Shown here: positions 125 to 48,928 of the stretch, piece after piece | Layout: each line of letters begins with the position of its first letter | How positions within the stretch are numbered: the first letter of the stretch is position 1 | Sequence record: MN850621.1 | Origin: Escherichia phage dhabil | Strand: one strand, 5' to 3' | Length of the DNA: 64,000 nucleotides | Notes under the pieces: model-generated | What the model was told of the DNA's origin: nothing | What the model saw: the letters and a program-made list of their open reading frames with translations, nothing else | Databases searched by the model: none | Made by a program: the position numbers and the translations under genes

Positions 125-448
125 TCACTTATAAAGACACGGAATAGCTTTATAGTGACAGGTAACGAATTTCTGTTTAATTTCTTTAGGCTGTTTAATA
201 CCCAATGCAACTAAAGGGTGAGGCACGTTAGCAATCTTACCAACAGGAAGTGGAGTCAAATCGCCTACTTCACAAAAACCTTCAGGGACATCAGGTCCTA
301 CAGAATAAATTTCACAAAGTTCAGGGATTTCACCTTGATGAAGTTTGCCAATAACGATACCAGATGCAGTAGTTTCTTCATCGCCAGCTTGTTTTGGTTC
401 GGAAACGAGAATAACATATTCTCCAACCGCTTTAATAGGAAGTTCCAT
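125..448 (-). CDS. 31: Co-chaperonin gp31 (GroES-like capsid-folding cochaperone)
   Basis: 107-aa ORF; GroES-like sequence with C-terminal block [23 protein letters not shown] that I recognise from T4 gp31; lies next to cd as in T4. Confidence 0.85.
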
Positions 449-479
449 ATTTAATCCATGTTGTTTTGTTGATAGATTA

Positions 480-504
480 ATAATAACACGCTATTCTTAA
501 AGCA
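480..504 (-). promoter_or_regulatory. Candidate MotA-dependent middle promoter for gene 31
   Basis: Minus strand reads TGCTTTA (MotA-box-like), 12 nt, TATTAT; about 30 nt upstream of gene 31 ATG; no GTTTAC -35 element. Confidence 0.35.
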
Positions 505-506
505 TA

Positions 507-806
507 TTACAGGACAAGCAGAGTTTCAGTCTGAAGCCCGTTAATAGAAATCAGTTTATCGAAACGGAACGAGCGCCAGTCATTAACCTTGGTATCAAAT
601 ACACGAATATAATTAACCGGTTCTTTATTAGCTTCTGGGCCCGGTGCTTGAATTTCTTTATATGGGAGGAGGTCTAGGTCGCGAGTACAAGTCATACGAC
701 GAACGCTGCCATCCGCCTTTTCAAACAGAACTTCGTGAAAGCCTACAGACAAGATAGTCTTGACTTTTTCACGGAGCCGAATAGTTTCTTGTTCAGTTAA
801 AATCAT
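507..806 (-). CDS. Hypothetical protein (99 aa)
   Basis: ORF in operon orientation, tightly packed between gene 31 and cd; no motif recognised. Confidence 0.5.
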   Translation of the reverse strand: MILTEQETIRLREKVKTILSVGFHEVLFEKADGSVRRMTCTRDLDLLPYKEIQAPGPEANKEPVNYIRVFDTKVNDWRSFRFDKLISINGLQTETLLVL

Positions 807-1817: not shown

Positions 1818-2371
1818 TAGATGGTCTCCAACTTAAGTTGTTTGGTAGTGGTAGCTTGGGTAACGTCGCCTTTAACAATATAACACACTTGTTGGAACGA
1901 ACTGGTCAAAAGCTCTTCGGCTTGACGGTCGGCTTGTTCCTTTGTGTTATGGCGAGAATGAACTTCAATCTTACCATTTTTAACGATAAGCACTTTCCAA
2001 TCCGCAGTGGCTTTTACTGGTTTAGGTCCACCATTTTCAGGAATACTCACCGAGGCCAGTGGACGTACCACTTCAATAAAGTAATCGAATTCATGGCCAA
2101 AAAGGCCTGTTGAATTAAAAAGAACAGCATTTGCATCATCAGGATTACCTGTGATTTTGCTAGGGTCGACAAACATCATCTCGTCATATACACGAATTCG
2201 GCTTACACGTTCACGCCCATTATGGTAATCAATTTCAACTTCAAACGGGTTCATACCTACATACTTGGCAAAAGCTGTATTGAGGCCATAAGAGCCGTTA
2301 TTAGTGAATTTGTTTTTAGTGTATTCGCTAATGAACTTATAAAACTTACGCTCTTCAAAGAACTTACCCAT
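1817..2371 (-). CDS. Hypothetical protein (about 184 aa)
   Basis: ORF track gives 1817..2482; start moved to internal ATG at 2371 (GAGGA 8 nt upstream) because the extension overlaps the upstream ORF. Confidence 0.45.
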   Translation of the reverse strand: MGKFFEERKFYKFISEYTKNKFTNNGSYGLNTAFAKYVGMNPFEVEIDYHNGRERVSRIRVYDEMMFVDPSKITGNPDDANAVLFNSTGLFGHEFDYFIEVVRPLASVSIPENGGPKPVKATADWKVLIVKNGKIEVHSRHNTKEQADRQAEELLTSSFQQVCYIVKGDVTQATTTKQLKLETI

Positions 2372-3315: not shown

Positions 3316-4536
<1,221 letters not shown>

Positions 4537-4540
<4 letters not shown>

Positions 4541-5034
4541 ACACCGAGCTCCTTATAAAGTTCTTCACGGCAGGTTTTAAGGGTTTTACCGGATTCATAA
4601 GCAACACTTTCAGGAACATCGCCGAGAGTTACTGCGGATTGCATTTGACCATGACGTTTAGCCGCATATTCAAAACTTTTTACTAGCTCACGAATACGTT
4701 CTTTTTCTTCATGAAGTGATTGGTTTTCTTCATAGCATGCAGTAACATCTAAGATTGAATTCCACACATCAGAAGGAATAGGCTTGGATAATTTCAACAC
4801 TCTGCTCGGGAAATCATTCCATGGGGCGTAGTATTCAACTTCTGTAATAGCTTTGTCTTTACATTCTGAAATAAAGAATCGAGCTTTACCTTCCAAAGGT
4901 GTTTTACGGCAAGAACCAATTCGGGCCAGATTTTGGAAGAATTTGTCTTTACACTTCATGATATTATTAGCGTTCTCAACATACCATAATATTTTCATAG
5001 TCATTTCCTCAATTTTTATAATCCGTAGGAGCAT
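4537..5034 (-). CDS. Hypothetical protein (165 aa)
   Basis: ORF in operon orientation; no motif recognised. Confidence 0.45.
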
Positions 5035-5165
5035 TATACTCTGCTCCCAAGAGTTTGTAAACTACTTTCCAAAAATACCGTTCATACACATGCTGAACAC
5101 GATTCCAAAACAAAAGCATGCAAAACCAAATCGAACGATATCCCACCCGTCAGCACAAGCCTCGA

Positions 5166-5456
5166 TCATTTGCACTTCTCCTCTTTTAACCCGGAACGAT
5201 AATAACATAACATAGATTTCTGGTCTTGTACATATCTTTTTACGTCATTCAACCAAATACGATGTTCTTGTGAGTCTTCAAACGGCATACCGACCCAAGC
5301 CTTACCATCGATTACCTTAACCTGCCACTTAACGTTATGTTCGGCAATAGGTTGTGGCCATGAAGGGTGTAGTTGTTGCTTAGGCGCCACAGGAACATCC
5401 TGAGCACATCCAACTAGCAATCCAATAGATAACATTACAGCAGTCAATTTAATCAT
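5166..5456 (-). CDS. Putative outer-membrane spanin (lipoprotein)
   Basis: 96 aa; signal peptide with lipobox LLVGC; immediately downstream of and overlapping a TM plus coiled-coil ORF; matches the T4 pseT.2/pseT.3 spanin position. Confidence 0.55.
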   Translation of the reverse strand: MIKLTAVMLSIGLLVGCAQDVPVAPKQQLHPSWPQPIAEHNVKWQVKVIDGKAWVGMPFEDSQEHRIWLNDVKRYVQDQKSMLCYYRSGLKEEKCK

Positions 5457-6353: not shown

Positions 6354-7501
6354 TACTCTATAACAATTTCTTTCAAATATTTTTCAGGGATTTGGGCCTT
6401 ATGATTTTTCAAGAACACAGAGTTAATTTGGTCTACGACCGTATCATAATTAATACCGCCTACGTACGCCTGCATAAGAATAGAGAACAACCCTGGGAAG
6501 TCTTTAAGGATTAACTGACCGGTAACAGCGTAGTCTTTACGGTCACGACCCTTGAGCTGAGAATATGCTGCTTCTAACAAAGCCAAGGACTGTTCTAAGT
6601 AGTCTAAATGAATGCGTTCAAATGCATTGATTTTCTCAATAGCAAATGAATCAGTACCGAACAAACCTCGGAGGTCATCAGTTCCACCAGCCACTACAAC
6701 TTCAAACAAACGTTCGTTATTGTTAATGGAATCTTTGGTATGATGCAGGGCGCTATACCAAGCGGTTTTGAGTTTAAAGAACGTGCCATCTTTAAGTACA
6801 AAGATAAAGCCTTCAATACCCTCTTGTTTACGGATATTGTCAACAAAATCACCTTCAGAGAGTTCATAGCTTTTAACCAAATGCTTACGCAGAGCGCCAT
6901 CTTTAAACAGTTCAGCGTAAGGGATATACTCACCCGTTTCGTTATTACGAACGTTCAGTAAGATAAGGTTTGTTTCTTGGTATGCCAGCACAATACGGTT
7001 AGTAGGCGAAACGTACTCGAGGTTGCACGTATAGCCTGCTTTAGTAATTTCTTCTAAACGAGCAGCGAAGGCCTCGTTTTCAGGGAGTCGAAGGAAACGT
7101 AAAGAATCATGTACCATCGACGAATGGATAGAGCCTTTAGATTTAACAGAAAGATATTGTCTATCCATGAAGGTAGAAATCAAGGAACCATCTTCCTTAG
7201 CCATTACGAGGTCAATATTTTCTTGTGATAAATCCAAACCAATAGTCAATGGATTTTCATCGAGATTAAAGAACTTTTGCATAGGACGAGCAGCGATACG
7301 TACAGGACCATTCTCGTCCATTTCAAACATAATTCCTCGGCACTCTAGTGCGCCGTCTTCCAACCAATCACTGTACGATGCATAGTTATAACTAAAGATG
7401 CGATAGTTGACTCCTAGCGCACTCTGGAAGTCTTTAAAGAAGAACTTAGATTTAGTCGAGTTTTTAACCAAAGTCATCAAGTTATCATATAATTCAATCA
7501 T
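6353..7501 (-). CDS. rnlA: RNA ligase 1
   Basis: 382 aa; nucleotidyltransferase motif KEDGSL; N-terminal block YRIFSYNYASYSDW as in T4 Rnl1 (gene 63). Confidence 0.85.
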   Translation of the reverse strand: MIELYDNLMTLVKNSTKSKFFFKDFQSALGVNYRIFSYNYASYSDWLEDGALECRGIMFEMDENGPVRIAARPMQKFFNLDENPLTIGLDLSQENIDLVMAKEDGSLISTFMDRQYLSVKSKGSIHSSMVHDSLRFLRLPENEAFAARLEEITKAGYTCNLEYVSPTNRIVLAYQETNLILLNVRNNETGEYIPYAELFKDGALRKHLVKSYELSEGDFVDNIRKQEGIEGFIFVLKDGTFFKLKTAWYSALHHTKDSINNNERLFEVVVAGGTDDLRGLFGTDSFAIEKINAFERIHLDYLEQSLALLEAAYSQLKGRDRKDYAVTGQLILKDFPGLFSILMQAYVGGINYDTVVDQINSVFLKNHKAQIPEKYLKEIVIE

Positions 7502-41575: not shown

Positions 41576-43393
41576 TTACGACATCCAGGCCTTACGGAGT
41601 TGAGGGTCGTTCCCGAGGAGCATTTCGAACTGTTCTTTCCAATCTTCAGGCAATTGAACTACATCAAATTTAGGGTCTTGAATCATTCGACGGTATTCAG
41701 CTTTCTCAAGAGAACCTAAACCTTTAATATATCGAATAGAATGTTTCGGTAGAGAGTCCTTGGCTTTGGTATAACTAGGAACATCATAAAACCATTCTTG
41801 TTCTTTACCGACCTGGGCAATAATCACCGGAGTTTTACAGAATCTCACTCGACCTTGTTCGAACAATTCAGGCCATTGACTAAAGAAGGCTAGCAATGAT
41901 GGATAAATCGAACCAGTACCATCCACATCAGCATCGGTCATAATGGCGATATTACGATAGTTGGTTTTATCTGCAGGTTCGCCAATAACCAATCCAGTGA
42001 TTGCACAGATATCAAATAGTTCCTTATTCTTCATGATATCTGTTGCTGTCATTCCCCAGGTATTCATAACCTTACCACGTAATGGATAACCACCTTGAAG
42101 GTCTTTATTACGGACTTCAATGAAAGGACCCATAGCGGAATCACCTTCAGTCAAGAACAGGGTTGTATCGGCATCTTTACCGTATAAGTTAGCTTTAATA
42201 TGCTTATGGACCTTGGCTTTAGAAGCTTTCTTAGCAGCTTTAGTTTCAGCAGCCTTTTCAGCTGCTAATTTACGTGCTAAAGCAGCTTCGACGATAGGCA
42301 TAATAAGCCCTTCGTTTTTAAGAATATACTGTGAGATTTTCTTTGCATCAATTTGAATATGATTACGAATTTCACCGAATGGTGACGTCAAACGCTCTTT
42401 AGTCTGGGAATCAAAACGCATATTACTCATATCACGAATGAACATTACCATCGTAAGGCATTCTTTAACACGAGCCTTTGTTACTTCAATTCCACGATAT
42501 TTCTTTTTAATACCAGGCAGAAGGTGCTCACAAATATCATCGAATACACATTCAACGTGGTGACCACCATTCTTAGTGTGGATATTGTTTACATAAGTCA
42601 GTTGACGGAAACCATCTGGAGATGTAGTAAATGCCATTGAGACATTATCGGTTTCTTGAATTACTACATCTTTACCAAATTGATTAGCATACTTTTTAAA
42701 GTTACCATCTACTTTTTTACCATTAAAAGTAAATTGGATACTAGGATAAATTACAGCTAGGGTTTTAAGACGATCTAAAGTAATATCCAGATAAATTTGG
42801 GTCAAACTATTTTCTTCGAAATGGTTAAAGTCTGGAGTGAATATAACCGAAGTGCCTTTATCTTTGGATTTCTTAGTAGTCCAACCTTTGTTTTCCATTC
42901 CGTTAGAACAGTTAACAGTAATCTCATTCTCACCATCAGAGGTGATGCCTGTGAACAAAACGGAGAAGATATTAGTTAAACTACTACCGACACCATTCAT
43001 GCCACCTGTCTTACGCTCTGCGTCATCTCCAAAGTTACCACCAGCCTTTGGAATAGTCCATGCAGCTACAGGACCTGGAATTTGTTCACCGTTTTGGTCA
43101 GTAACCATTGCTTGTGGAATACCACGGCCATTATCAGAAACTGAAACCTGATTATTCTTAATTCGGACATCAATTTTGTTTGCGAATTTAAAATTAGTAC
43201 GAATAGCTTCATCGACAGAGTTATCAATGATTTCATCAATTAATTTAACTAGCCCTGGAACATAGTTCACCTGTGTAAAATTACCGAACAGGAATCGACC
43301 ATGGGCTTCATTAGCACTAGAGCCAATATACATCCCACTACGTTTTTTGATATGTTCAATGTCGGACAGTACTTTAATTTCATTCTTAATCAT
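41576..43393 (-). CDS. 39: DNA topoisomerase II large subunit (GyrB-like ATPase plus Toprim), single unsplit gene
   Basis: 605 aa continuous ORF with GHKL ATPase N-terminus and Toprim region. Confidence 0.85.
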   Translation of the reverse strand: MIKNEIKVLSDIEHIKKRSGMYIGSSANEAHGRFLFGNFTQVNYVPGLVKLIDEIIDNSVDEAIRTNFKFANKIDVRIKNNQVSVSDNGRGIPQAMVTDQNGEQIPGPVAAWTIPKAGGNFGDDAERKTGGMNGVGSSLTNIFSVLFTGITSDGENEITVNCSNGMENKGWTTKKSKDKGTSVIFTPDFNHFEENSLTQIYLDITLDRLKTLAVIYPSIQFTFNGKKVDGNFKKYANQFGKDVVIQETDNVSMAFTTSPDGFRQLTYVNNIHTKNGGHHVECVFDDICEHLLPGIKKKYRGIEVTKARVKECLTMVMFIRDMSNMRFDSQTKERLTSPFGEIRNHIQIDAKKISQYILKNEGLIMPIVEAALARKLAAEKAAETKAAKKASKAKVHKHIKANLYGKDADTTLFLTEGDSAMGPFIEVRNKDLQGGYPLRGKVMNTWGMTATDIMKNKELFDICAITGLVIGEPADKTNYRNIAIMTDADVDGTGSIYPSLLAFFSQWPELFEQGRVRFCKTPVIIAQVGKEQEWFYDVPSYTKAKDSLPKHSIRYIKGLGSLEKAEYRRMIQDPKFDVVQLPEDWKEQFEMLLGNDPQLRKAWMS

Positions 43394-43441
43394 GTTATTT
43401 CCTCATGTAGTAGGAGAATATTATCCCATTTCACTTAAAGC

Positions 43442-43461
43442 ATAAAAGGGCCGAAGCCCTT
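43442..43461 (-). terminator. Intrinsic terminator after lipoprotein gene
   Basis: AAGGGC-CGAA-GCCCTT, followed in the minus-strand RNA by UUUU. Confidence 0.5.
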
Positions 43462-43720
43462 AATCAAATCGGATGGTCGACTTTTTAAAGAATAACCCAG
43501 AACAAACTGTTCCTTCAACCCTTTTACCTGTCGGACCTACAGCAATAAAGCCTGTACGTTGGAAATCATCTTCAGAACAGCCAAATAGGTTGTATCCTGT
43601 GATTTGGATTTGTTTGTAGCCATTTGCATCCAATACACGGGCGGCATTATCGGCATCAGTACAACCAACCAACGAAACTGCTAGTACCAGAGCTGCAATA
43701 GAACGATTAACGTATTTCAT
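43460..43720 (-). CDS. Predicted lipoprotein (86 aa)
   Basis: Signal peptide with lipobox LVGC then a small Cys-containing domain. Confidence 0.5.
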   Translation of the reverse strand: MKYVNRSIAALVLAVSLVGCTDADNAARVLDANGYKQIQITGYNLFGCSEDDFQRTGFIAVGPTGKRVEGTVCSGLFFKKSTIRFD

Positions 43721-43726
43721 AATTTC

Positions 43727-43903
43727 TCACTTAGTCAGCAGGTCGTAAAAACCGCCATTAACATGTTTAGGGGCCGAGACTAACCGAACAGCCAGCCGAT
43801 GGCAATCAGGACAAACATCGTTATCTCTTTCAGAGATTTTCTTGATTTTTTCGTATTCTTTTGCACAGTCTTCAGATTGGCATTTGTAATCATAAAGTGG
43901 CAT
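43727..43903 (-). CDS. FmdB-like zinc-ribbon protein (58 aa), not in ORF track
   Basis: MPLYDYKCQSEDCAKEYEKIKKISERDNDVCPDCHRLAVRL...; CxxC pairs. Confidence 0.4.
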   Translation of the reverse strand: MPLYDYKCQSEDCAKEYEKIKKISERDNDVCPDCHRLAVRLVSAPKHVNGGFYDLLTK

Positions 43904-43904
43904 G

Positions 43905-44342
43905 TTATTCCTTAAAGTGTGCTTTCAGCATCTGGTAAACGGTCCAGGCTTCAGAGTTATTAGAGATAGTGATTTTAGTCAAAGGGAAATCACTCGGTTC
44001 ATATGGGGCTGCATCTTCAGACTGGTCTTCGTCTTCAGAGAAACCATCTTCGGCCCATTCGTCTTCACTGTCAACTACAACCATTTCCGTAAAGAATTTA
44101 CGCTCGCTTGGATATAAAACCATATCAATGTTATCGCCATAAGCCAAGTCTGCATTAAATACATATCCAGCCGATACTCTAACAGGGCAAAAACCTTCAG
44201 AATTGACAATAATATCTGCTATAGAAGAATTATCAGGATTTCTAATATTATGGGAATTCAGCTTACGGAATTCAGCTTCTGCCGCGTCATCTTTAAAATA
44301 GTACCATTTACCTTTTTCAAATTCGAGTTCTTGATTAAGCAT
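43905..44342 (-). CDS. Hypothetical acidic protein (about 145 aa)
   Basis: ORF track 43905..44435; ATG at 44342 gives an 8-nt overlap with the upstream ORF stop. Confidence 0.45.
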   Translation of the reverse strand: MLNQELEFEKGKWYYFKDDAAEAEFRKLNSHNIRNPDNSSIADIIVNSEGFCPVRVSAGYVFNADLAYGDNIDMVLYPSERKFFTEMVVVDSEDEWAEDGFSEDEDQSEDAAPYEPSDFPLTKITISNNSEAWTVYQMLKAHFKE

Positions 44343-44553
44343 TGTAAGTTTCCTTCCAGAAGTCGGTGCCTTCAGCAGTGATTTCACGGAACACTGCATA
44401 GATAGGGTTTTTATCGCCTTGATTTTCGTATACATAAACCGACGATAAATGAGAAAACGTATCAGAATGTTCCTTTTGAACCACGATTAAATCAGGGTTG
44501 AACAGAACGTCTTCAAATTCTTCACGAGTCGAGTTCACAGTAACTTTAGCCAT
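44335..44553 (-). CDS. Hypothetical protein (72 aa)
   Basis: First ORF after promoter-like cassette 44584..44613. Confidence 0.45.
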   Translation of the reverse strand: MAKVTVNSTREEFEDVLFNPDLIVVQKEHSDTFSHLSSVYVYENQGDKNPIYAVFREITAEGTDFWKETYNA

Positions 44554-44583
44554 TTTATTTTCCTCTCATTTGTTGATAAGGTA

Positions 44584-44613
44584 ATAGTATCACTACCCTA
44601 CCGTATTGTATAC
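44584..44613 (-). promoter_or_regulatory. Early-promoter-like cassette (GTATAC -35 variant)
   Basis: Minus strand GTATAC - 18 nt - TACTAT - TACCTTATCAACAAATGAGAGGAA - ATG. Confidence 0.35.
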
Positions 44614-44626
44614 TGTTTTTTTAAAC

Positions 44627-45190
44627 TTATGCACGATGAATATTAGCATACTCGACAATAAAGCTTTCAGGAACCACCTTAAAAGTTCCAAGGAACACGA
44701 TGTTATAAAGCTTAACGCCTTCTTCAACCCACTGGTCTGTGATGTAACCGGACATGCTGGTGGTTTCATAAGTACCGAAAAGTTCGTCATCGTATTCAAA
44801 CGGCTTAGGGGAAACGAAAAAGACACCTTGACCTAATTCCCATTTAAAATCAACACCCACATGAGACTGGTCGATAGTTTCAACGTCTTGAGCTACTACG
44901 CCACGGATATCATTGCTTTCACATACATACCCATCATGGGATTCAACTTCTTCAACCACTGGGGTATGAACAAGTTCAGGAACTATTGGACGCGCTTTCC
45001 AGCCCTTAGAAATCAAAGTGACATAGCGTTCTTTAACATAACCTACAGTTGAAGAAACGAAACCACTGGAACGAAATGCCTGGACTTTAACAAGACCACG
45101 AGAGAAATTGAATCCAATAATAATACATTTTTTACCAGCAACTTTAGATTTAGAATCTTCGGAAACCGATACGATATCACCAATTTTCAT
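44627..45190 (-). CDS. Hypothetical protein (187 aa), paralog of 45268..45816
   Basis: Shares C-terminal block GYITDQWVEEGVKLYNIVFLGTFKVVPES with the next ORF. Confidence 0.5.
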   Translation of the reverse strand: MKIGDIVSVSEDSKSKVAGKKCIIIGFNFSRGLVKVQAFRSSGFVSSTVGYVKERYVTLISKGWKARPIVPELVHTPVVEEVESHDGYVCESNDIRGVVAQDVETIDQSHVGVDFKWELGQGVFFVSPKPFEYDDELFGTYETTSMSGYITDQWVEEGVKLYNIVFLGTFKVVPESFIVEYANIHRA

Positions 45191-45236
45191 AATATTACCT
45201 TTTGTTTAGGAATTAGGTTTATTCTCCATAAGAGCC

Positions 45237-45265
45237 ATTATAACATGGCTCTCGATAAAGTAAAC
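45237..45265 (-). promoter_or_regulatory. Early promoter (canonical GTTTAC-N17-TATAAT)
   Basis: Minus strand GTTTAC - 17 nt - TATAAT, about 45 nt upstream of ORF 44627..45190. Confidence 0.55.
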
Positions 45266-45267
45266 TA

Positions 45268-45816
45268 TTAATTCAATACATTAACCACTGCACTACGAGG
45301 TACTACGCTAAAATCACCAGCATGTACAACGTTCAGCAGCTCAACACCATCTTCAATCCACTGGTCTGTTACCCAACCACAGATAGGATTATCAAAAGGA
45401 CGACGGATAGCCACAGCAGCACACAACAGGTCGGTAGGGCCTTGTTCTTCAACTTCTTGGAACAGGATGAACTCATCTTCATAAACCAGGTTTTTCTCTA
45501 TTTTGTTATTATCTAACCGGCGACCGTGGATGACGTAAGATTTGTCAAACCACTCACTTTTGGCGAATTCTTCAACAATAAATTCGCCTTCGCCAAAAAC
45601 ATAAGTCAGAGTTTTATAACCGGAAATCAGGGCCTTAGTTTTAAATTCAGGTTCAACCAGTTTGTAGGTTTTGCCGATTTCGATAGTCTGAGTAGTCATA
45701 GTGGGTTCCTTAATTTCCAATGGTTTAATAGGGGCTACATAAGTGCTTAAAACATCAAAATCAATCAATTTGGCCGCCGGGTTCGGTGTGTATTTGGGAT
45801 TATAATTAAATTTCAT
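45268..45816 (-). CDS. Hypothetical protein (182 aa), paralog of 44627..45190
   Basis: C-terminal block GWVTDQWIEDGVELLNVVHAGDFSVVPRS. Confidence 0.5.
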   Translation of the reverse strand: MKFNYNPKYTPNPAAKLIDFDVLSTYVAPIKPLEIKEPTMTTQTIEIGKTYKLVEPEFKTKALISGYKTLTYVFGEGEFIVEEFAKSEWFDKSYVIHGRRLDNNKIEKNLVYEDEFILFQEVEEQGPTDLLCAAVAIRRPFDNPICGWVTDQWIEDGVELLNVVHAGDFSVVPRSAVVNVLN

Positions 45817-45818
45817 AA

Positions 45819-46322
45819 TTATCTCATTTCAATAAAATCTACGAGTTCAGCATGGGATTTGCGGAACATTACTTGGCGGTCACCAATGACTACCTCATCT
45901 TCAGGTATTTCGTAAACAGCAAGATAGAATCCTTTAGAAGATAATTCTTCGCGCTCTTCACGAGTGAACCAGCGCATCATATCATACTCGCTGGCAAAAG
46001 CAAAATGGTAGAGGTTAACAAACCAACCCGGAATATAATCGTCACAGTCTTCATAATCAGGTCGTTTCCACTTAGTTCTAATGGCTTTATTAGAATTTTC
46101 TACCAACAACTTATCTTGACTTGGTAGTGGGATATTTTTATTAATGCTATGATGATGTCTAAAAATAGGTCTGTCCAAACCTACTTCCAATAACCAGCCT
46201 TCACTCCATGAGTCTGTTGTACTTCTATACGGGGTCATTTGAGTACAGAGGTCTCGTCGTATTGTGATAGCGTTTCCATCATCTAAGATACTGAACGATG
46301 ACTCAACTCGATAAATTTTCAT
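45819..46322 (-). CDS. Hypothetical protein (167 aa)
   Basis: First ORF after cassette 46350..46378. Confidence 0.5.
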   Translation of the reverse strand: MKIYRVESSFSILDDGNAITIRRDLCTQMTPYRSTTDSWSEGWLLEVGLDRPIFRHHHSINKNIPLPSQDKLLVENSNKAIRTKWKRPDYEDCDDYIPGWFVNLYHFAFASEYDMMRWFTREEREELSSKGFYLAVYEIPEDEVVIGDRQVMFRKSHAELVDFIEMR

Positions 46323-46349
46323 TTTGTTCTCCTCATGTTGATAGGGTAG

Positions 46350-46378
46350 ATAATATCATGTCATGAGGAGAAGTAAAC
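46350..46378 (-). promoter_or_regulatory. Early-promoter cassette
   Basis: Minus strand GTTTAC - 17 nt - TATTAT - CTACCCTATCAACATGAGGAGAA - ATG; 11-bp inverted repeat 46327-46337 / 46362-46372. Confidence 0.55.
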
Positions 46379-46382
46379 ACTT

Positions 46383-47057
46383 TTATCGATTTTTTACACT
46401 TAATGGGTCTGGATTCTCAGGAACATCTTCTAGGTTTAAAGCATATCGTTGGGCATATTTCAGCATCAAGATATCCTTAGCACAGTCATGGATAGAGTCA
46501 TGAGCAACAAAACCATTCAATGTTCCGTTAGGCAGAGGGCACATGCTCAATCCTCGCGTCAGTGAATACGCTTCAATAGCTGTACGGATATCACGTTGGT
46601 TCCAGAATTTAACCGGTTCCAACTTGGTGGTATCGATTTCGTTCTCAGGAACACCTTCAGAACGATAAGCATCGCGAATAAGGTCCACTAAGATTGGAAA
46701 GTCAAAGGACATTCCGCGACACCACATCTGGGATTTCCATTGGTCCACTTCGTTTTTACGACAGTATTCCAGGAAATTACCAAGGCCGATAGAAGTAGTC
46801 ACATCAATTTCGGACGGAGCCAGGTTTTTACGTGCTTCAGGTCCTTGTTCTTTCCACCACTGCAATGTGCTTTTAGAGAACAGACGTTTATCACGTTGAG
46901 AAGCCAAATCGAATTTAATACGAAGGCCGCGTTGAGTAAGCTCTTCAAAAGATTCTACTACCTCTGGATTAGGGTCATAAGCAATTACGGCGAGGTCAAT
47001 AACTGCTGCATTTTGGGTAGTGGCAAAGGTTTCAAAGTCAATAATTATATCTTTCAT
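46383..47057 (-). CDS. dexA: Exonuclease A (DEDD 3'-5' exonuclease)
   Basis: 224 aa; N-terminal IIDFETF motif; position next to dda as in T4. Confidence 0.8.
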   Translation of the reverse strand: MKDIIIDFETFATTQNAAVIDLAVIAYDPNPEVVESFEELTQRGLRIKFDLASQRDKRLFSKSTLQWWKEQGPEARKNLAPSEIDVTTSIGLGNFLEYCRKNEVDQWKSQMWCRGMSFDFPILVDLIRDAYRSEGVPENEIDTTKLEPVKFWNQRDIRTAIEAYSLTRGLSMCPLPNGTLNGFVAHDSIHDCAKDILMLKYAQRYALNLEDVPENPDPLSVKNR

Positions 47058-47344
47058 TTAACGTACCTCATAAGGTCTCGGATTTGGCCAACAGTATAGT
47101 CTTCAATATAAACCGAAGAGATATTGTCATCCATCAGTTTTTGCACTGCAATAAAATCGCTTTCAATCTCTTTAAGTGAATGCAAGACCTTATGAGCCTT
47201 GCCACGGATATTTGTATCGTCTGGGTCGACCTTAATAATATATTCCGTCTCGAATTTCAACTTATAAAATTGGTCTTTAGTTACTTTAATCATATTTTCC
47301 TCAAACATAATAGGCATCAGTACGAGCACGGGTAATACTAACAT
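47054..47344 (-). CDS. Hypothetical protein (96 aa)
   Basis: ORF between dexA and dda. Confidence 0.45.
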   Translation of the reverse strand: MLVLPVLVLMPIMFEENMIKVTKDQFYKLKFETEYIIKVDPDDTNIRGKAHKVLHSLKEIESDFIAVQKLMDDNISSVYIEDYTVGQIRDLMRYVK

Positions 47345-48632
47345 AAGCCAGCTGTGAAGCTAAATTCGCATCAGCCATGTGCATACACGGAGTATAGATG
47401 AAACTGTTTTGGACAGTAAGGCCCTGTGATTTATGAACAGTGCTCACCGGAAGAGCTCTAACCTTAGTGAACATTCGCTTGGCTTTCCAGAAATCAGCCC
47501 ACTTAGGTTTCTTACCGGTTCCACGCATAGCCTTGTACTCAGTAGCCACCTTAGCCAAGAAATAATGGAACTTCTCAACTGAAGCCTCATCAATAACTTT
47601 CAAGTGTTCTACATAGTACTCGTCATCCTCATCAATAGATTCAACCTGGAGGTCCCAGTAATTAATCATCTGGCGAGTGCCTACATCCTTGGCAGACAAG
47701 AACAATGAGGTATGGTTCACATCTAAAATACGAACCATTTGCCCGTTATTAAAAATGGTTTCAGAGAATTTCTTACCGTCGTATTCAAGCTCCTTCATAA
47801 AAGGCTCTTGCATCACGAGGATTTCACCCTTGATATAAGGCGCATCGGTTTCATAAAGCTTTTTACGAATAATGCTATTCAGCTTTTCAACCGATTTATT
47901 CGTATAAGCAAACATCCGGTTCTCAAACAAGGCATCGGCATCTTTTACGATGGAAAAATAATTCATCATAAAATCTTTTAAGGCTGTTTGAGATTTGAAA
48001 CCATGGACACCATGGCCTTCGAATATACAATCTCGGAACCATCCACCATTACGGATTTCAGTAGCAACCTCAATGATAGGAGCATTACTACGCATTACTT
48101 CAGTAAGGTGTAGCTGTTTAATTTTAGGGTGGGTAAAGAATGGAGACAACTGAGGACTACCATCACTTCCAGGTTCTACTGGCTGTAACTGAGCTCGGTC
48201 GCCAATCCCTAGTACAGTGCACCATGGTGGAACCGATGCTTCGATAATCTTAAACAACTTACCGTCAATCATTGAGCCTTCGTCGACCACAAGAACATTA
48301 CATTTGCTCAAGTCAGGAGCTTCACGCTGTTCAAAAATATCCTGGTCTTCGTATGTAGTCGGGTTAATCTTTAAGATTCGGTGGATTGTCGATGCTTCTT
48401 GGCCTGCGAGTTTCGACAATACCTTCTTGGCCGCGTGTGTGGGTGCGGTCAAAATAACTCCGAGTTCGCCATTCTTGACTAAGTGGTCAAGAATAAATTT
48501 AGTAAGGGTCGTTTTACCTGTACCGGCAGGACCATTCAATGTAATCCATTCGCCCTTACGTCGTTTAATAGCTTCAATGATTTCTTTAAAGGCCGTCCTC
48601 TGGCCGATGTTCAAGTCTTCAAATGTAATCAT
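47301..48632 (-). CDS. dda: Dda DNA helicase (SF1B)
   Basis: 443 aa; Walker A GPAGTGKTT; long colinear similarity to T4 Dda (AKKVLSKLAGQEASTIHRILKINP, CTVLGIGD, SPFFTHP). Confidence 0.9.
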   Translation of the reverse strand: MITFEDLNIGQRTAFKEIIEAIKRRKGEWITLNGPAGTGKTTLTKFILDHLVKNGELGVILTAPTHAAKKVLSKLAGQEASTIHRILKINPTTYEDQDIFEQREAPDLSKCNVLVVDEGSMIDGKLFKIIEASVPPWCTVLGIGDRAQLQPVEPGSDGSPQLSPFFTHPKIKQLHLTEVMRSNAPIIEVATEIRNGGWFRDCIFEGHGVHGFKSQTALKDFMMNYFSIVKDADALFENRMFAYTNKSVEKLNSIIRKKLYETDAPYIKGEILVMQEPFMKELEYDGKKFSETIFNNGQMVRILDVNHTSLFLSAKDVGTRQMINYWDLQVESIDEDDEYYVEHLKVIDEASVEKFHYFLAKVATEYKAMRGTGKKPKWADFWKAKRMFTKVRALPVSTVHKSQGLTVQNSFIYTPCMHMADANLASQLAYVSITRARTDAYYV

Positions 48633-48928
48633 GCCAATTTTACTCGCTTAACATATAAAGTGTCTAAAACTAATTTCAATTCTCGTGCATGTTCTTCAGT
48701 CGGAAAAACAGTTTTTGTTTCCCACTTATCAAACCACCATTTTCTAGGTGTGCATACTGTTTCAATACGTCCCATGCGTAAATATCGGTTTGTAGTATAT
48801 GAATAGTTGGCAAGTTCATATTCTGCGCCCGCTTTTGTGGTGTATAAGGTCACCTTTCCGTCATATTCTAGCGGATGTTCGTACCCATCTTTGTCTTTGT
48901 GAACTAATACGTATGCATAGTACATCAC
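48629..48928 (-). CDS. Hypothetical protein (99 aa)
   Basis: ORF with 4-nt overlap to dda. Confidence 0.45.
   Translation of the reverse strand: MMYYAYVLVHKDKDGYEHPLEYDGKVTLYTTKAGAEYELANYSYTTNRYLRMGRIETVCTPRKWWFDKWETKTVFPTEEHARELKLVLDTLYVKRVKLA

Follow-up and report, generated by a model that had tools for sequence, protein, structure and literature searches.

A common C-terminal domain in the adjacent early proteins MotB and MotB.1 of a JS98-like T-even phage

The window analyzed here, a 64,000-nucleotide stretch of the genome of Escherichia phage dhabil (MN850621.1), carries on its minus strand a series of early-type genes between 41.5 and 48.7 kb, in the order gp39-39.1-39.2-goF-cef-motB-motB.1-motB.2-dexA-dexA.1-dda (Table 1), which matches that of phage JS98 and, apart from dexA.2, that of T4 as well. 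Positions 43400-47400 share 95-96% DNA identity with UP19 and JS98, two Escherichia phages of the genus Dhakavirus, and the phage is a JS98-like T-even phage of this genus, with motB and motB.1 both non-essential early genes. A first-pass annotation, made from the letters alone, had pointed to two neighboring ORFs sitting where T4 has motB and its neighbors, and the larger of these is found at the exact T4 motB position; both ORFs exist on the minus strand and encode 187 and 182 aa, respectively. An Rfam scan of positions 43300-48800 returned no relevant match.

Table 1. Genes, protein domains and regulatory features of the motB region, in coordinates of the window.
Feature	Position	Strand	Basis
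gp39, topoisomerase large subunit	41576-43393	-	family scans and annotated relatives
39.1	43460-43720	-	family scans and annotated relatives
39.2	43727-43903	-	family scans and annotated relatives
goF orthologue, 145 aa	43905-44342	-	phrog_622 1.1e-24; JS98 annotation
cef	44335-44553	-	family scans and annotated relatives
motB orthologue, 187 aa plus stop	44627-45190	-	Pfam PF17613 1.3e-35; phrog_1671; between cef and motB.1
MotB C-terminal domain, residues 108-187, five-strand barrel	44630..44869	-	AF2, pLDDT 83-95 over most
Shared 40-residue core, MotB residues 144-183	44642..44761	-	BLASTP; tblastn coordinates
MotB acidic linker, residues 63-107, disordered, net -7, pI 4.4	44870..45004	-	pLDDT <50
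MotB N-terminal KOW/SH3-like barrel, residues 1-62, basic (net +7, pI 10)	45005..45190	-	AF2
Stem-loop GAGAGCCAU/AUGGCUCUU enclosing motB -10, just past motB.1 stop	45230..45253	-	covariation
T4-type early promoter of motB, GTTTAC-N17-TATAAT, TG before -10	45237..45265	-	pattern; T4 position
motB.1 orthologue, 182 aa plus stop	45268-45816	-	phrog_2333 7.9e-85; JS98 motB.1 97.8% identical
MotB.1 C-terminal domain, residues 126-182, acidic, pI 4.3	45271..45441	-	AF2, pLDDT about 90-94 over most
Shared 40-residue core, MotB.1 residues 143-182	45271..45390	-	BLASTP, tblastn, hhalign
MotB.1 LSm-like/SH3-like barrel with inserted helix, residues 44-125	45442..45687	-	AF2; GoF family hhalign
MotB.1 N-terminal extension, residues 1-43, predicted disordered, motif LIDFDVLSTYVAPIKP	45688..45816	-	pLDDT <50
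motB.2 orthologue	45819-46322	-	phrog_1106 3e-51; JS98 and T4 annotation
Early-promoter-like site GTTTAC-N17-TATTAT upstream of motB.2	46350..46378	-	function inferred
dexA	46383-47057	-	family scans and annotated relatives
dexA.1	47054-47344	-	family scans and annotated relatives
dda	47301-48632	-	family scans and annotated relatives

By sequence, the two ORFs are MotB and MotB.1, i.e., the orthologues themselves rather than a mere match of locus. The 187-aa product matches the Pfam motB model (PF17613) at 123.1 bits (cutoff 25) over profile positions 65-159, and PHROG 1671 over its full length (residues 1-187, 5.1e-57), while the 182-aa product is likewise covered from end to end by PHROG 2333 (residues 1-182, Table 1). 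MotB of the window is 93% identical to MotB of JS10 vs. 64% overall to that of JS98, and the differences from JS98 are confined to the N-terminal domain (NTD) and linker, a mosaic which indicates allele exchange.

When the two proteins are compared with each other, BLASTP aligns residues 144-183 of MotB with residues 143-182 of MotB.1 (TSMSGYITDQWVEEGVKLYNIVFLGTFKVVPESFIVEYAN vs. NPICGWVTDQWIEDGVELLNVVHAGDFSVVPRSAVVNVLN; 19 of 40 positions identical, or 48%, E = 3e-11), and no other part of the two sequences aligns. Comparison of the two family alignments by hhalign gave E = 2.9e-15 (probability 98.5%, 39 columns), and the Pfam motB model also recovers MotB.1, at 34.8 bits (cutoff 25 bits) and over residues 141-177 only. 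The C-terminal block described in the first pass is thus real, with the residue pattern as it was written (core pattern G(Y/W)(I/V)TDQW(I/V)E(E/D)GV.L.N(I/V)V..G.F.VVP.S), and the alignment proposed there as a check, with lack of significance as the refuting outcome, came out significant both between sequences and between profiles. Eight residues are invariant across 32 diverse family members (D151, Q152, W153, G157, L160, N162, V164 and V171), and in the alignment of the MotB.1 family almost all positions from P127 through L131 and from G147 through A166 are invariant. The core of the MotB.1-type C-terminal domain (CTD), DPTDLL...GWVTDQWIEDGVELLNVVH, is present in the window MotB.1 behind an NTD that is not of the KOW type, with GPTDLL where the family has DPTDLL. 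A six-frame tblastn search of the whole window found these two copies of the module only, and no third.

Models of both proteins built by AF2 with family alignments consist of confident domains joined by disordered segments, with no defined placement of the domains relative to one another, which accounts for the low pTM values (0.43 and 0.50). The small beta-barrel pattern suggested earlier for each N-terminal part is borne out, as residues 1-62 of MotB and 44-125 of MotB.1 are both modeled as beta-rich with pLDDT of roughly 82-92. The MotB NTD opens with the pattern G.IV.VS..S.SK..G, in which G4, I6, V9, S10, S13, S15 and G19 are invariant, and has predicted strands at 6-9, 21-28, 33-39, 45-53 and, after a helical turn, 57-59; MotB.1 lacks this start, its NTD being of another type. 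Within the MotB linker lies an optional insert, VESHDGYVCESNDIRGVVAQD, found in only part of the MotB family. The MotB CTD (residues 108-187, net -7, pI 4.5) has predicted strands at 122-135, 139-156, 159-166, 169-174 and, after a helical turn, 178-181, and that of MotB.1 has the same strand order with a shorter first hairpin (134-139, 142-155, 158-165, 168-173, 177-181). The shared 40-residue core is acidic in both proteins (charge -3 and -4, pI 4.1-4.3), and MotB.1 as a whole has a net charge of -9 (pI 4.8) and no basic domain. No solved relative turned up when the PDB copy was searched with each protein and with a family profile (for MotB, 0 hits at E ≤ 10; all other hits were noise at E > 0.1), so that this copy offers no T4 MotB structure for the comparison proposed in the first pass.

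The N-terminal extension of MotB.1 is mostly disordered in the model (pLDDT <50 over residues 1-41 except residue 6) and is conserved across the family of 180-aa proteins. Its motif LIDFDVLSTYVAPIKP is movable, since in relatives it sits between NTD and CTD. We also considered a short isoform starting at M40, which has an AAGGA 7 nt ahead of the ATG and aligns with the T4 start. Synonymous variation is low in motB.1 codons 19-58, but on eight related sequences this signal was too weak, and the isoform was rejected.

With regard to transcription, the first-pass annotation had given each gene its own early promoter, which holds for motB but not for motB.1. The motB promoter begins two bases past the motB.1 stop codon, and its placement and sequence type are the same in T4; motB would thus be transcribed from a promoter of its own. 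No canonical site lies directly upstream of motB.1, where just 2 nt separate its start from the motB.2 stop and leave no intergenic space, and because the nearest canonical site lies upstream of motB.2, motB.1 is probably co-transcribed with motB.2, this upstream site being the likely promoter of both genes. The one candidate for a separate motB.1 promoter, ATGAGA-N17-TATAAT (45827-45799), was discarded, as its -10 lies inside the ORF and such sites occur at chance frequency in this region (17 found, 14.4 expected). The -10 of motB is enclosed by a stem-loop with an 8-bp stem, for which an alignment of the 24-nt hairpin alone showed 100% of cells paired in nine distinct sequences, with five pairs changed on both sides, vs. 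31-48% pairing in slid controls. The predicted folding energy of the 55-nt stretch holding this hairpin is about -18 to -20 kcal/mol, and the hairpin may represent a 3' stem-loop of the motB.2-motB.1 transcript.

Across the wider family, a HMMER search with MotB.1 over 1.84 billion representatives returned only 18 clusters (50% identity), and those traceable to named sources all come from T4-like phages. Cluster P0203, a 2139-aa repeat adhesin, was judged spurious. The N-terminal region in front of the MotB.1-type CTD, which starts DPTDLLC, takes several forms: a single LSm-like barrel (window and T4), two such barrels in tandem (P0193, 251 aa), the barrel preceded by an additional domain of 80 residues (P0011 and P0194, about 248 aa), or a MotB-like KOW barrel (P0199-P0202, P0204-P0206 and P0208). 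In P0207, a 43-aa product, the MotB.2 N-terminus is fused with the final 29 residues of MotB.1, which recalls the 29-aa RB69 peptide mentioned by Patterson-West et al. (2021, PMC7827196). The MotB.1 NTD further aligns with the GoF family (hhalign E = 1.1e-4 over 68 columns, with a probability of only 57%; phrog_622 match at E = 1.1e-3), and the GoF NTD is a probable paralogue of the MotB.1 NTD, with moderate sequence support only. The alignment is consistent with the LSm-like barrel of SH3 topology that Kim et al. (2025, PMC12152347) described as common to the MotB.1 NTD, GoF and Frd.2, but does not decide the matter.

The motB/motB.1 pair and the relationship between its domains are already in the literature: Patterson-West et al. 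(2021, PMC7827196) described the shared CTD, the different NTDs and the idea of a duplication, sorted 102 homologues into four categories, and proposed either MotB domain as the DNA binder. According to Patterson-West et al. (2018, PMC6070864), T4 MotB binds DNA tightly and non-specifically, whether modified or unmodified, and is recovered together with H-NS and StpA on purification. Its over-production is toxic, and its presence doubles the burst size while the T4 transcriptome hardly changes; MotB also alters the H-NS footprint on DNA (PMC7827196). The DNA binding that the first pass had offered as a possibility is thus documented by experiment for T4 MotB, and for T4 MotB only (PMC6070864). 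Whole window MotB has a net charge of -7 (pI 5.1) vs. +6 (pI 9.2) for T4 MotB, so the tight DNA binding of the T4 protein may not extend to that of the window. A T4 phage deleted for motB.1 grows normally (Kim et al., 2025, PMC12152347).

Taken as a whole, we consider it very probable that motB and motB.1 encode proteins of two small barrels each, which have in common an old, strongly conserved and acidic barrel at the C-terminus (about 55-80 residues) and differ in their N-terminal domains, basic and KOW/SH3-like in MotB, acidic and LSm-like in MotB.1. The window MotB would then most likely contact DNA via its basic N-terminal barrel, and the shared acidic CTD would more likely act as a protein-interaction, oligomerization or targeting module than as a DNA-binding surface, the basis for this assignment being its charge, its conservation and its fold resemblance. 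MotB.1 would therefore probably supply an N-domain of another kind, one that binds RNA or protein, to the partner or context that MotB also addresses.

In the published assignment, by contrast, the CTD is an OB-fold: HHpred placed the MotB CTD in SCOPe b.40.4.5, closest to archaeal eIF5A (1BKB, 2EIF; PMC7827196). An OB-fold (cold-shock-like) domain through which both MotB and MotB.1 bind DNA would agree with the DNA binding of T4 MotB (PMC6070864), and with the T4 MotB CTD being charge-neutral, vs. acidic in the window. However, the conserved core is acidic in MotB and MotB.1, the latter lacks any basic domain, and the AF2 models of both CTDs have a helical turn between strands four and five. 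They show neither the helix between strands three and four nor the structural neighbors of an OB-fold. A helical turn between strands four and five, with none between three and four, is the order of SH3-like barrels and not of OB-folds. We thus hold DNA binding through an OB-fold CTD to be unlikely; in the models, the topology of the shared CTD looks SH3/Tudor-like, and this SH3-like, acidic appearance calls the published OB-fold DNA-binding assignment into question.

A second alternative, which the historical gene name and the "transcriptional regulator" labels of many homologues in databases would favor, is that MotB, and by extension MotB.1, modifies phage transcription. In RNA-seq of T4 motB-am vs. 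wild type, however, early and middle genes were unaffected and effects on a few late genes were mild (PMC6070864). Over-expression of MotB raises 75 host genes, in a paper whose title ties this to altered H-NS-dependent repression (PMC7827196), and the effect of MotB.1 in a reporter assay was small (PMC12152347). A role as modifier of phage transcription therefore seems very unlikely to us.

How the two genes came to share the module bears on a third alternative, namely that an entire gene was recently duplicated in tandem or that the copies still undergo gene conversion. The genes are indeed direct neighbors in the same orientation, and one has been suggested to be a duplicate of the other (PMC7827196). 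But their alignment is limited to the last 40 residues, or about 55 with structural correspondence, and the DNA of the block shows 56% identity, falling to 37.5% at third codon positions, so that the similarity must be old and held by selection on the protein. The pair is moreover found in T4, JS98 and 40 further phage genomes (PMC7827196), and the N-domains belong to different families, that of MotB.1 being nearer to GoF. The short alignment, DNA divergence, wide distribution and differing N-domains argue for ancient domain shuffling and leave recent duplication extremely improbable; the "duplicated gene family" of the first-pass annotation is accordingly a case of paralogy at the level of a domain, the CTD, with N-domains drawn from different small-barrel families. 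That the similarity arose by chance, or that one ORF is no real gene, can be practically dismissed, as it was already refuted by the E-values of 3e-11 and 2.9e-15, and as each ORF has hundreds of conserved full-length homologues and matches a curated family model.

With regard to the shared module, the T4 reference sequence deserves attention. T4 motB.1 reads ATTGGAAGATGG in NC_000866.4 / AF158101.6 and ATTGAAGATGG in T4 "wild" (KJ477684), and the extra G of the reference brings the annotated product to a stop at 119 aa (ending in GWVTDQWIGRWR), a point that lies within the conserved core. Over 516 nt, twelve further records (ten T4, RB55 and RB59) match the version lacking this G at 100% identity, the 517-nt span occurs in the two reference records only, and MT984581 annotates an intact T4 MotB.1 of 143 aa. 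The reference annotation of T4 MotB.1 is thus probably truncated by a one-base artifact which removes the greater part of the shared module. For their plasmids, Kim et al. (2025, PMC12152347) relied on gene synthesis; they cited NC_000866.4 for the T4 sequences in amber constructs, and gave a MotB.1 monomer of 13.8 kDa, from which it appears that the 119-aa form was tested. For work on T4 early genes, this means that the single functional study of MotB.1 in print was apparently done with a form missing most of the shared module.

This bears on a more specific and tentative proposal, which we regard as doubtful: the acidic, SH3/Tudor-like CTD, rather than binding DNA, could be a docking or hetero-oligomerization module that brings a DNA-binding KOW-like domain (MotB) and an LSm-like domain for RNA or protein (MotB.1) to the same partner (e.g., an H-NS/StpA nucleoprotein complex) or to each other, while the conserved disordered DxDVxSxY peptide would serve as another binding motif, movable in position. 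In that case the published negative findings on T4 MotB.1, apparently obtained with the 119-aa form, would need repeating. The domain shuffling in the MotB family and the conserved hairpin over the motB promoter may likewise be of use to those who study T4 early genes.

Compared to known systems, the window MotB resembles T4 MotB (NP_049626) in its position in the gene order, in its arrangement of KOW-like NTD, linker and conserved CTD, and in its type of early promoter, and the CTD cores of the two are nearly identical. It differs in length (187 vs. 162 aa), in its JS10-type allele of the N-terminal barrel, and in the acidic insert of its linker (VESHDGYVCESNDIRGVVAQD). T4 MotB.1 likewise lies between motB and motB.2 and combines an LSm-like NTD with a MotB-type CTD. 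By tblastn, only residues 104-182 of the window MotB.1 align with the T4 sequence, at 67.5% identity, the NTDs being strongly diverged; MotB.1 of the JS98 type further carries a predicted-disordered extension of 39-43 residues with DxDVxSxY, both of which are absent from T4 MotB.1. GoF, encoded three genes downstream of motB.1 in the window, has an NTD that aligns with that of MotB.1, but its C-terminal part is different, very acidic (net -13) and without the MotB-type CTD. Among the matches listed are SH3-like "Royal family"/KOW barrels (Tudor, BAH core, PWWP, chromo, Spt5/NusG KOW and EF-P domain I) at 4-24% identity, a likeness of fold only, which does not indicate common descent. In their reported effect on H-NS, the closest parallels are T7 gp5.5 and T4 Arn, early proteins that perturb H-NS-DNA complexes by DNA mimicry or direct binding of H-NS, unlike MotB, and alongside these another published phage protein is said to interfere with H-NS. 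MotB, for its part, has been reported to act on H-NS complexes while itself bound to DNA (PMC7827196).

At the nucleotide level, the motB.1 gene of the T4 reference genome (NC_000866.4) carries a single extra G (ATTGGAAGATGG vs. ATTGAAGATGG by record comparison; see table for the records compared), which cuts the annotated T4 MotB.1 to 119 aa, its end falling within the conserved GWVTDQWIEDGV core. This G is absent from 12 other T4, RB55 and RB59 records, in which the encoded protein is 143 aa long with a complete MotB-type C-terminal domain (CTD). Since the 2025 functional study of MotB.1 reported a 13.8 kDa protein from a gene-synthesised construct (Kim et al., 2025; PMC12152347), it was probably the truncated form that was tested there.

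Coordinates of the features discussed, in the window unless another record is named
Feature	Position	Strand	Remarks
gp39	41576-43393	(-)	single ORF, 605 aa
MotB N-terminal domain (NTD) and linker	44870-45190	(-)	
Acidic linker insert VESHDGYVCESNDIRGVVAQD	44885-44947	(-)	MotB residues 82-102
Conserved stem-loop GAGAGCCAU GUUAUA AUGGCUCUU	45230-45253	(-)	inside motB promoter 45237-45265
In-frame ATG (M40)	45697-45711	(-)	MotB.1 codons 36-40
Motif (I/V)DxD(V/I)xSxYxxPxxP	45718-45768	(-)	MotB.1 residues 17-33
Extra-G site	NC_000866.4 (L002) about 2292-2330		T4 about 7291-7330
motB.1 for comparison	KJ477684 (L003) 612-1043; MT984581 (L004) 313-744		

The predicted disordered segment of MotB.1 includes a short conserved motif, (I/V)DxD(V/I)xSxYxxPxxP, which is located N-terminal of the LSm-like barrel in JS98-type MotB.1, between the NTD and CTD in other family members (P0198, P0200-P0202, P0206 and P0208), and is missing from T4 MotB.1. 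It looks like a movable peptide motif, and possibly represents a binding site. An in-frame ATG (M40) lines up with the start of T4 MotB.1 and is preceded, 7 nt ahead, by AAGGA, and codons 19-58 of motB.1 display low synonymous variation (n = 8 homologues). A shorter, T4-like isoform initiated at M40 is conceivable, if only weakly so. Separately, architectural variants of MotB.1 (proteins P0193, P0011/P0194 and P0207; loci L013-L015) comprise a 251-aa form with two LSm-like barrels in tandem, a form of about 248 aa with an additional 80-residue N-terminal domain, and a 43-aa remnant in which the MotB.2 N-terminus is fused to the final 29 residues of MotB.1.

Directly past the motB.1 stop codon, a conserved stem-loop encloses the -10 hexamer of the motB promoter. 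Its pairing is retained in T4 and other relatives despite differing sequences: all 8 pairs are 100% paired, with compensatory changes at 5 of them, vs. 31-48% for slid controls. This element could stabilise or terminate the upstream transcript at its 3' end, or else be a promoter feature.

Overall, MotB from the window is 93% identical to that of JS10 vs. only 64% to that of JS98, and the adjacent MotB.1 is 97.8% identical to its JS98 counterpart. Two distinct KOW-like NTD alleles of MotB are in circulation among Dhakaviruses, which indicates mosaic exchange. Some MotB proteins carry the acidic linker insert and others (the 163-aa forms) lack it cleanly. The insert resembles the SHVQA(N/E)DG(Y/F)VVD(T/R)DV segment of relatives that pair a KOW-like NTD with a MotB.1-type CTD.

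Finally, T4 gene 39 (3778-5328 in NC_000866) is shorter than gp39 of the window, and its annotation notes an insertion that splits the large topoisomerase subunit in two in T4 and related phages. JS98 gene 39 is equal in length to the window ORF, and an undivided gp39 is therefore ordinary.
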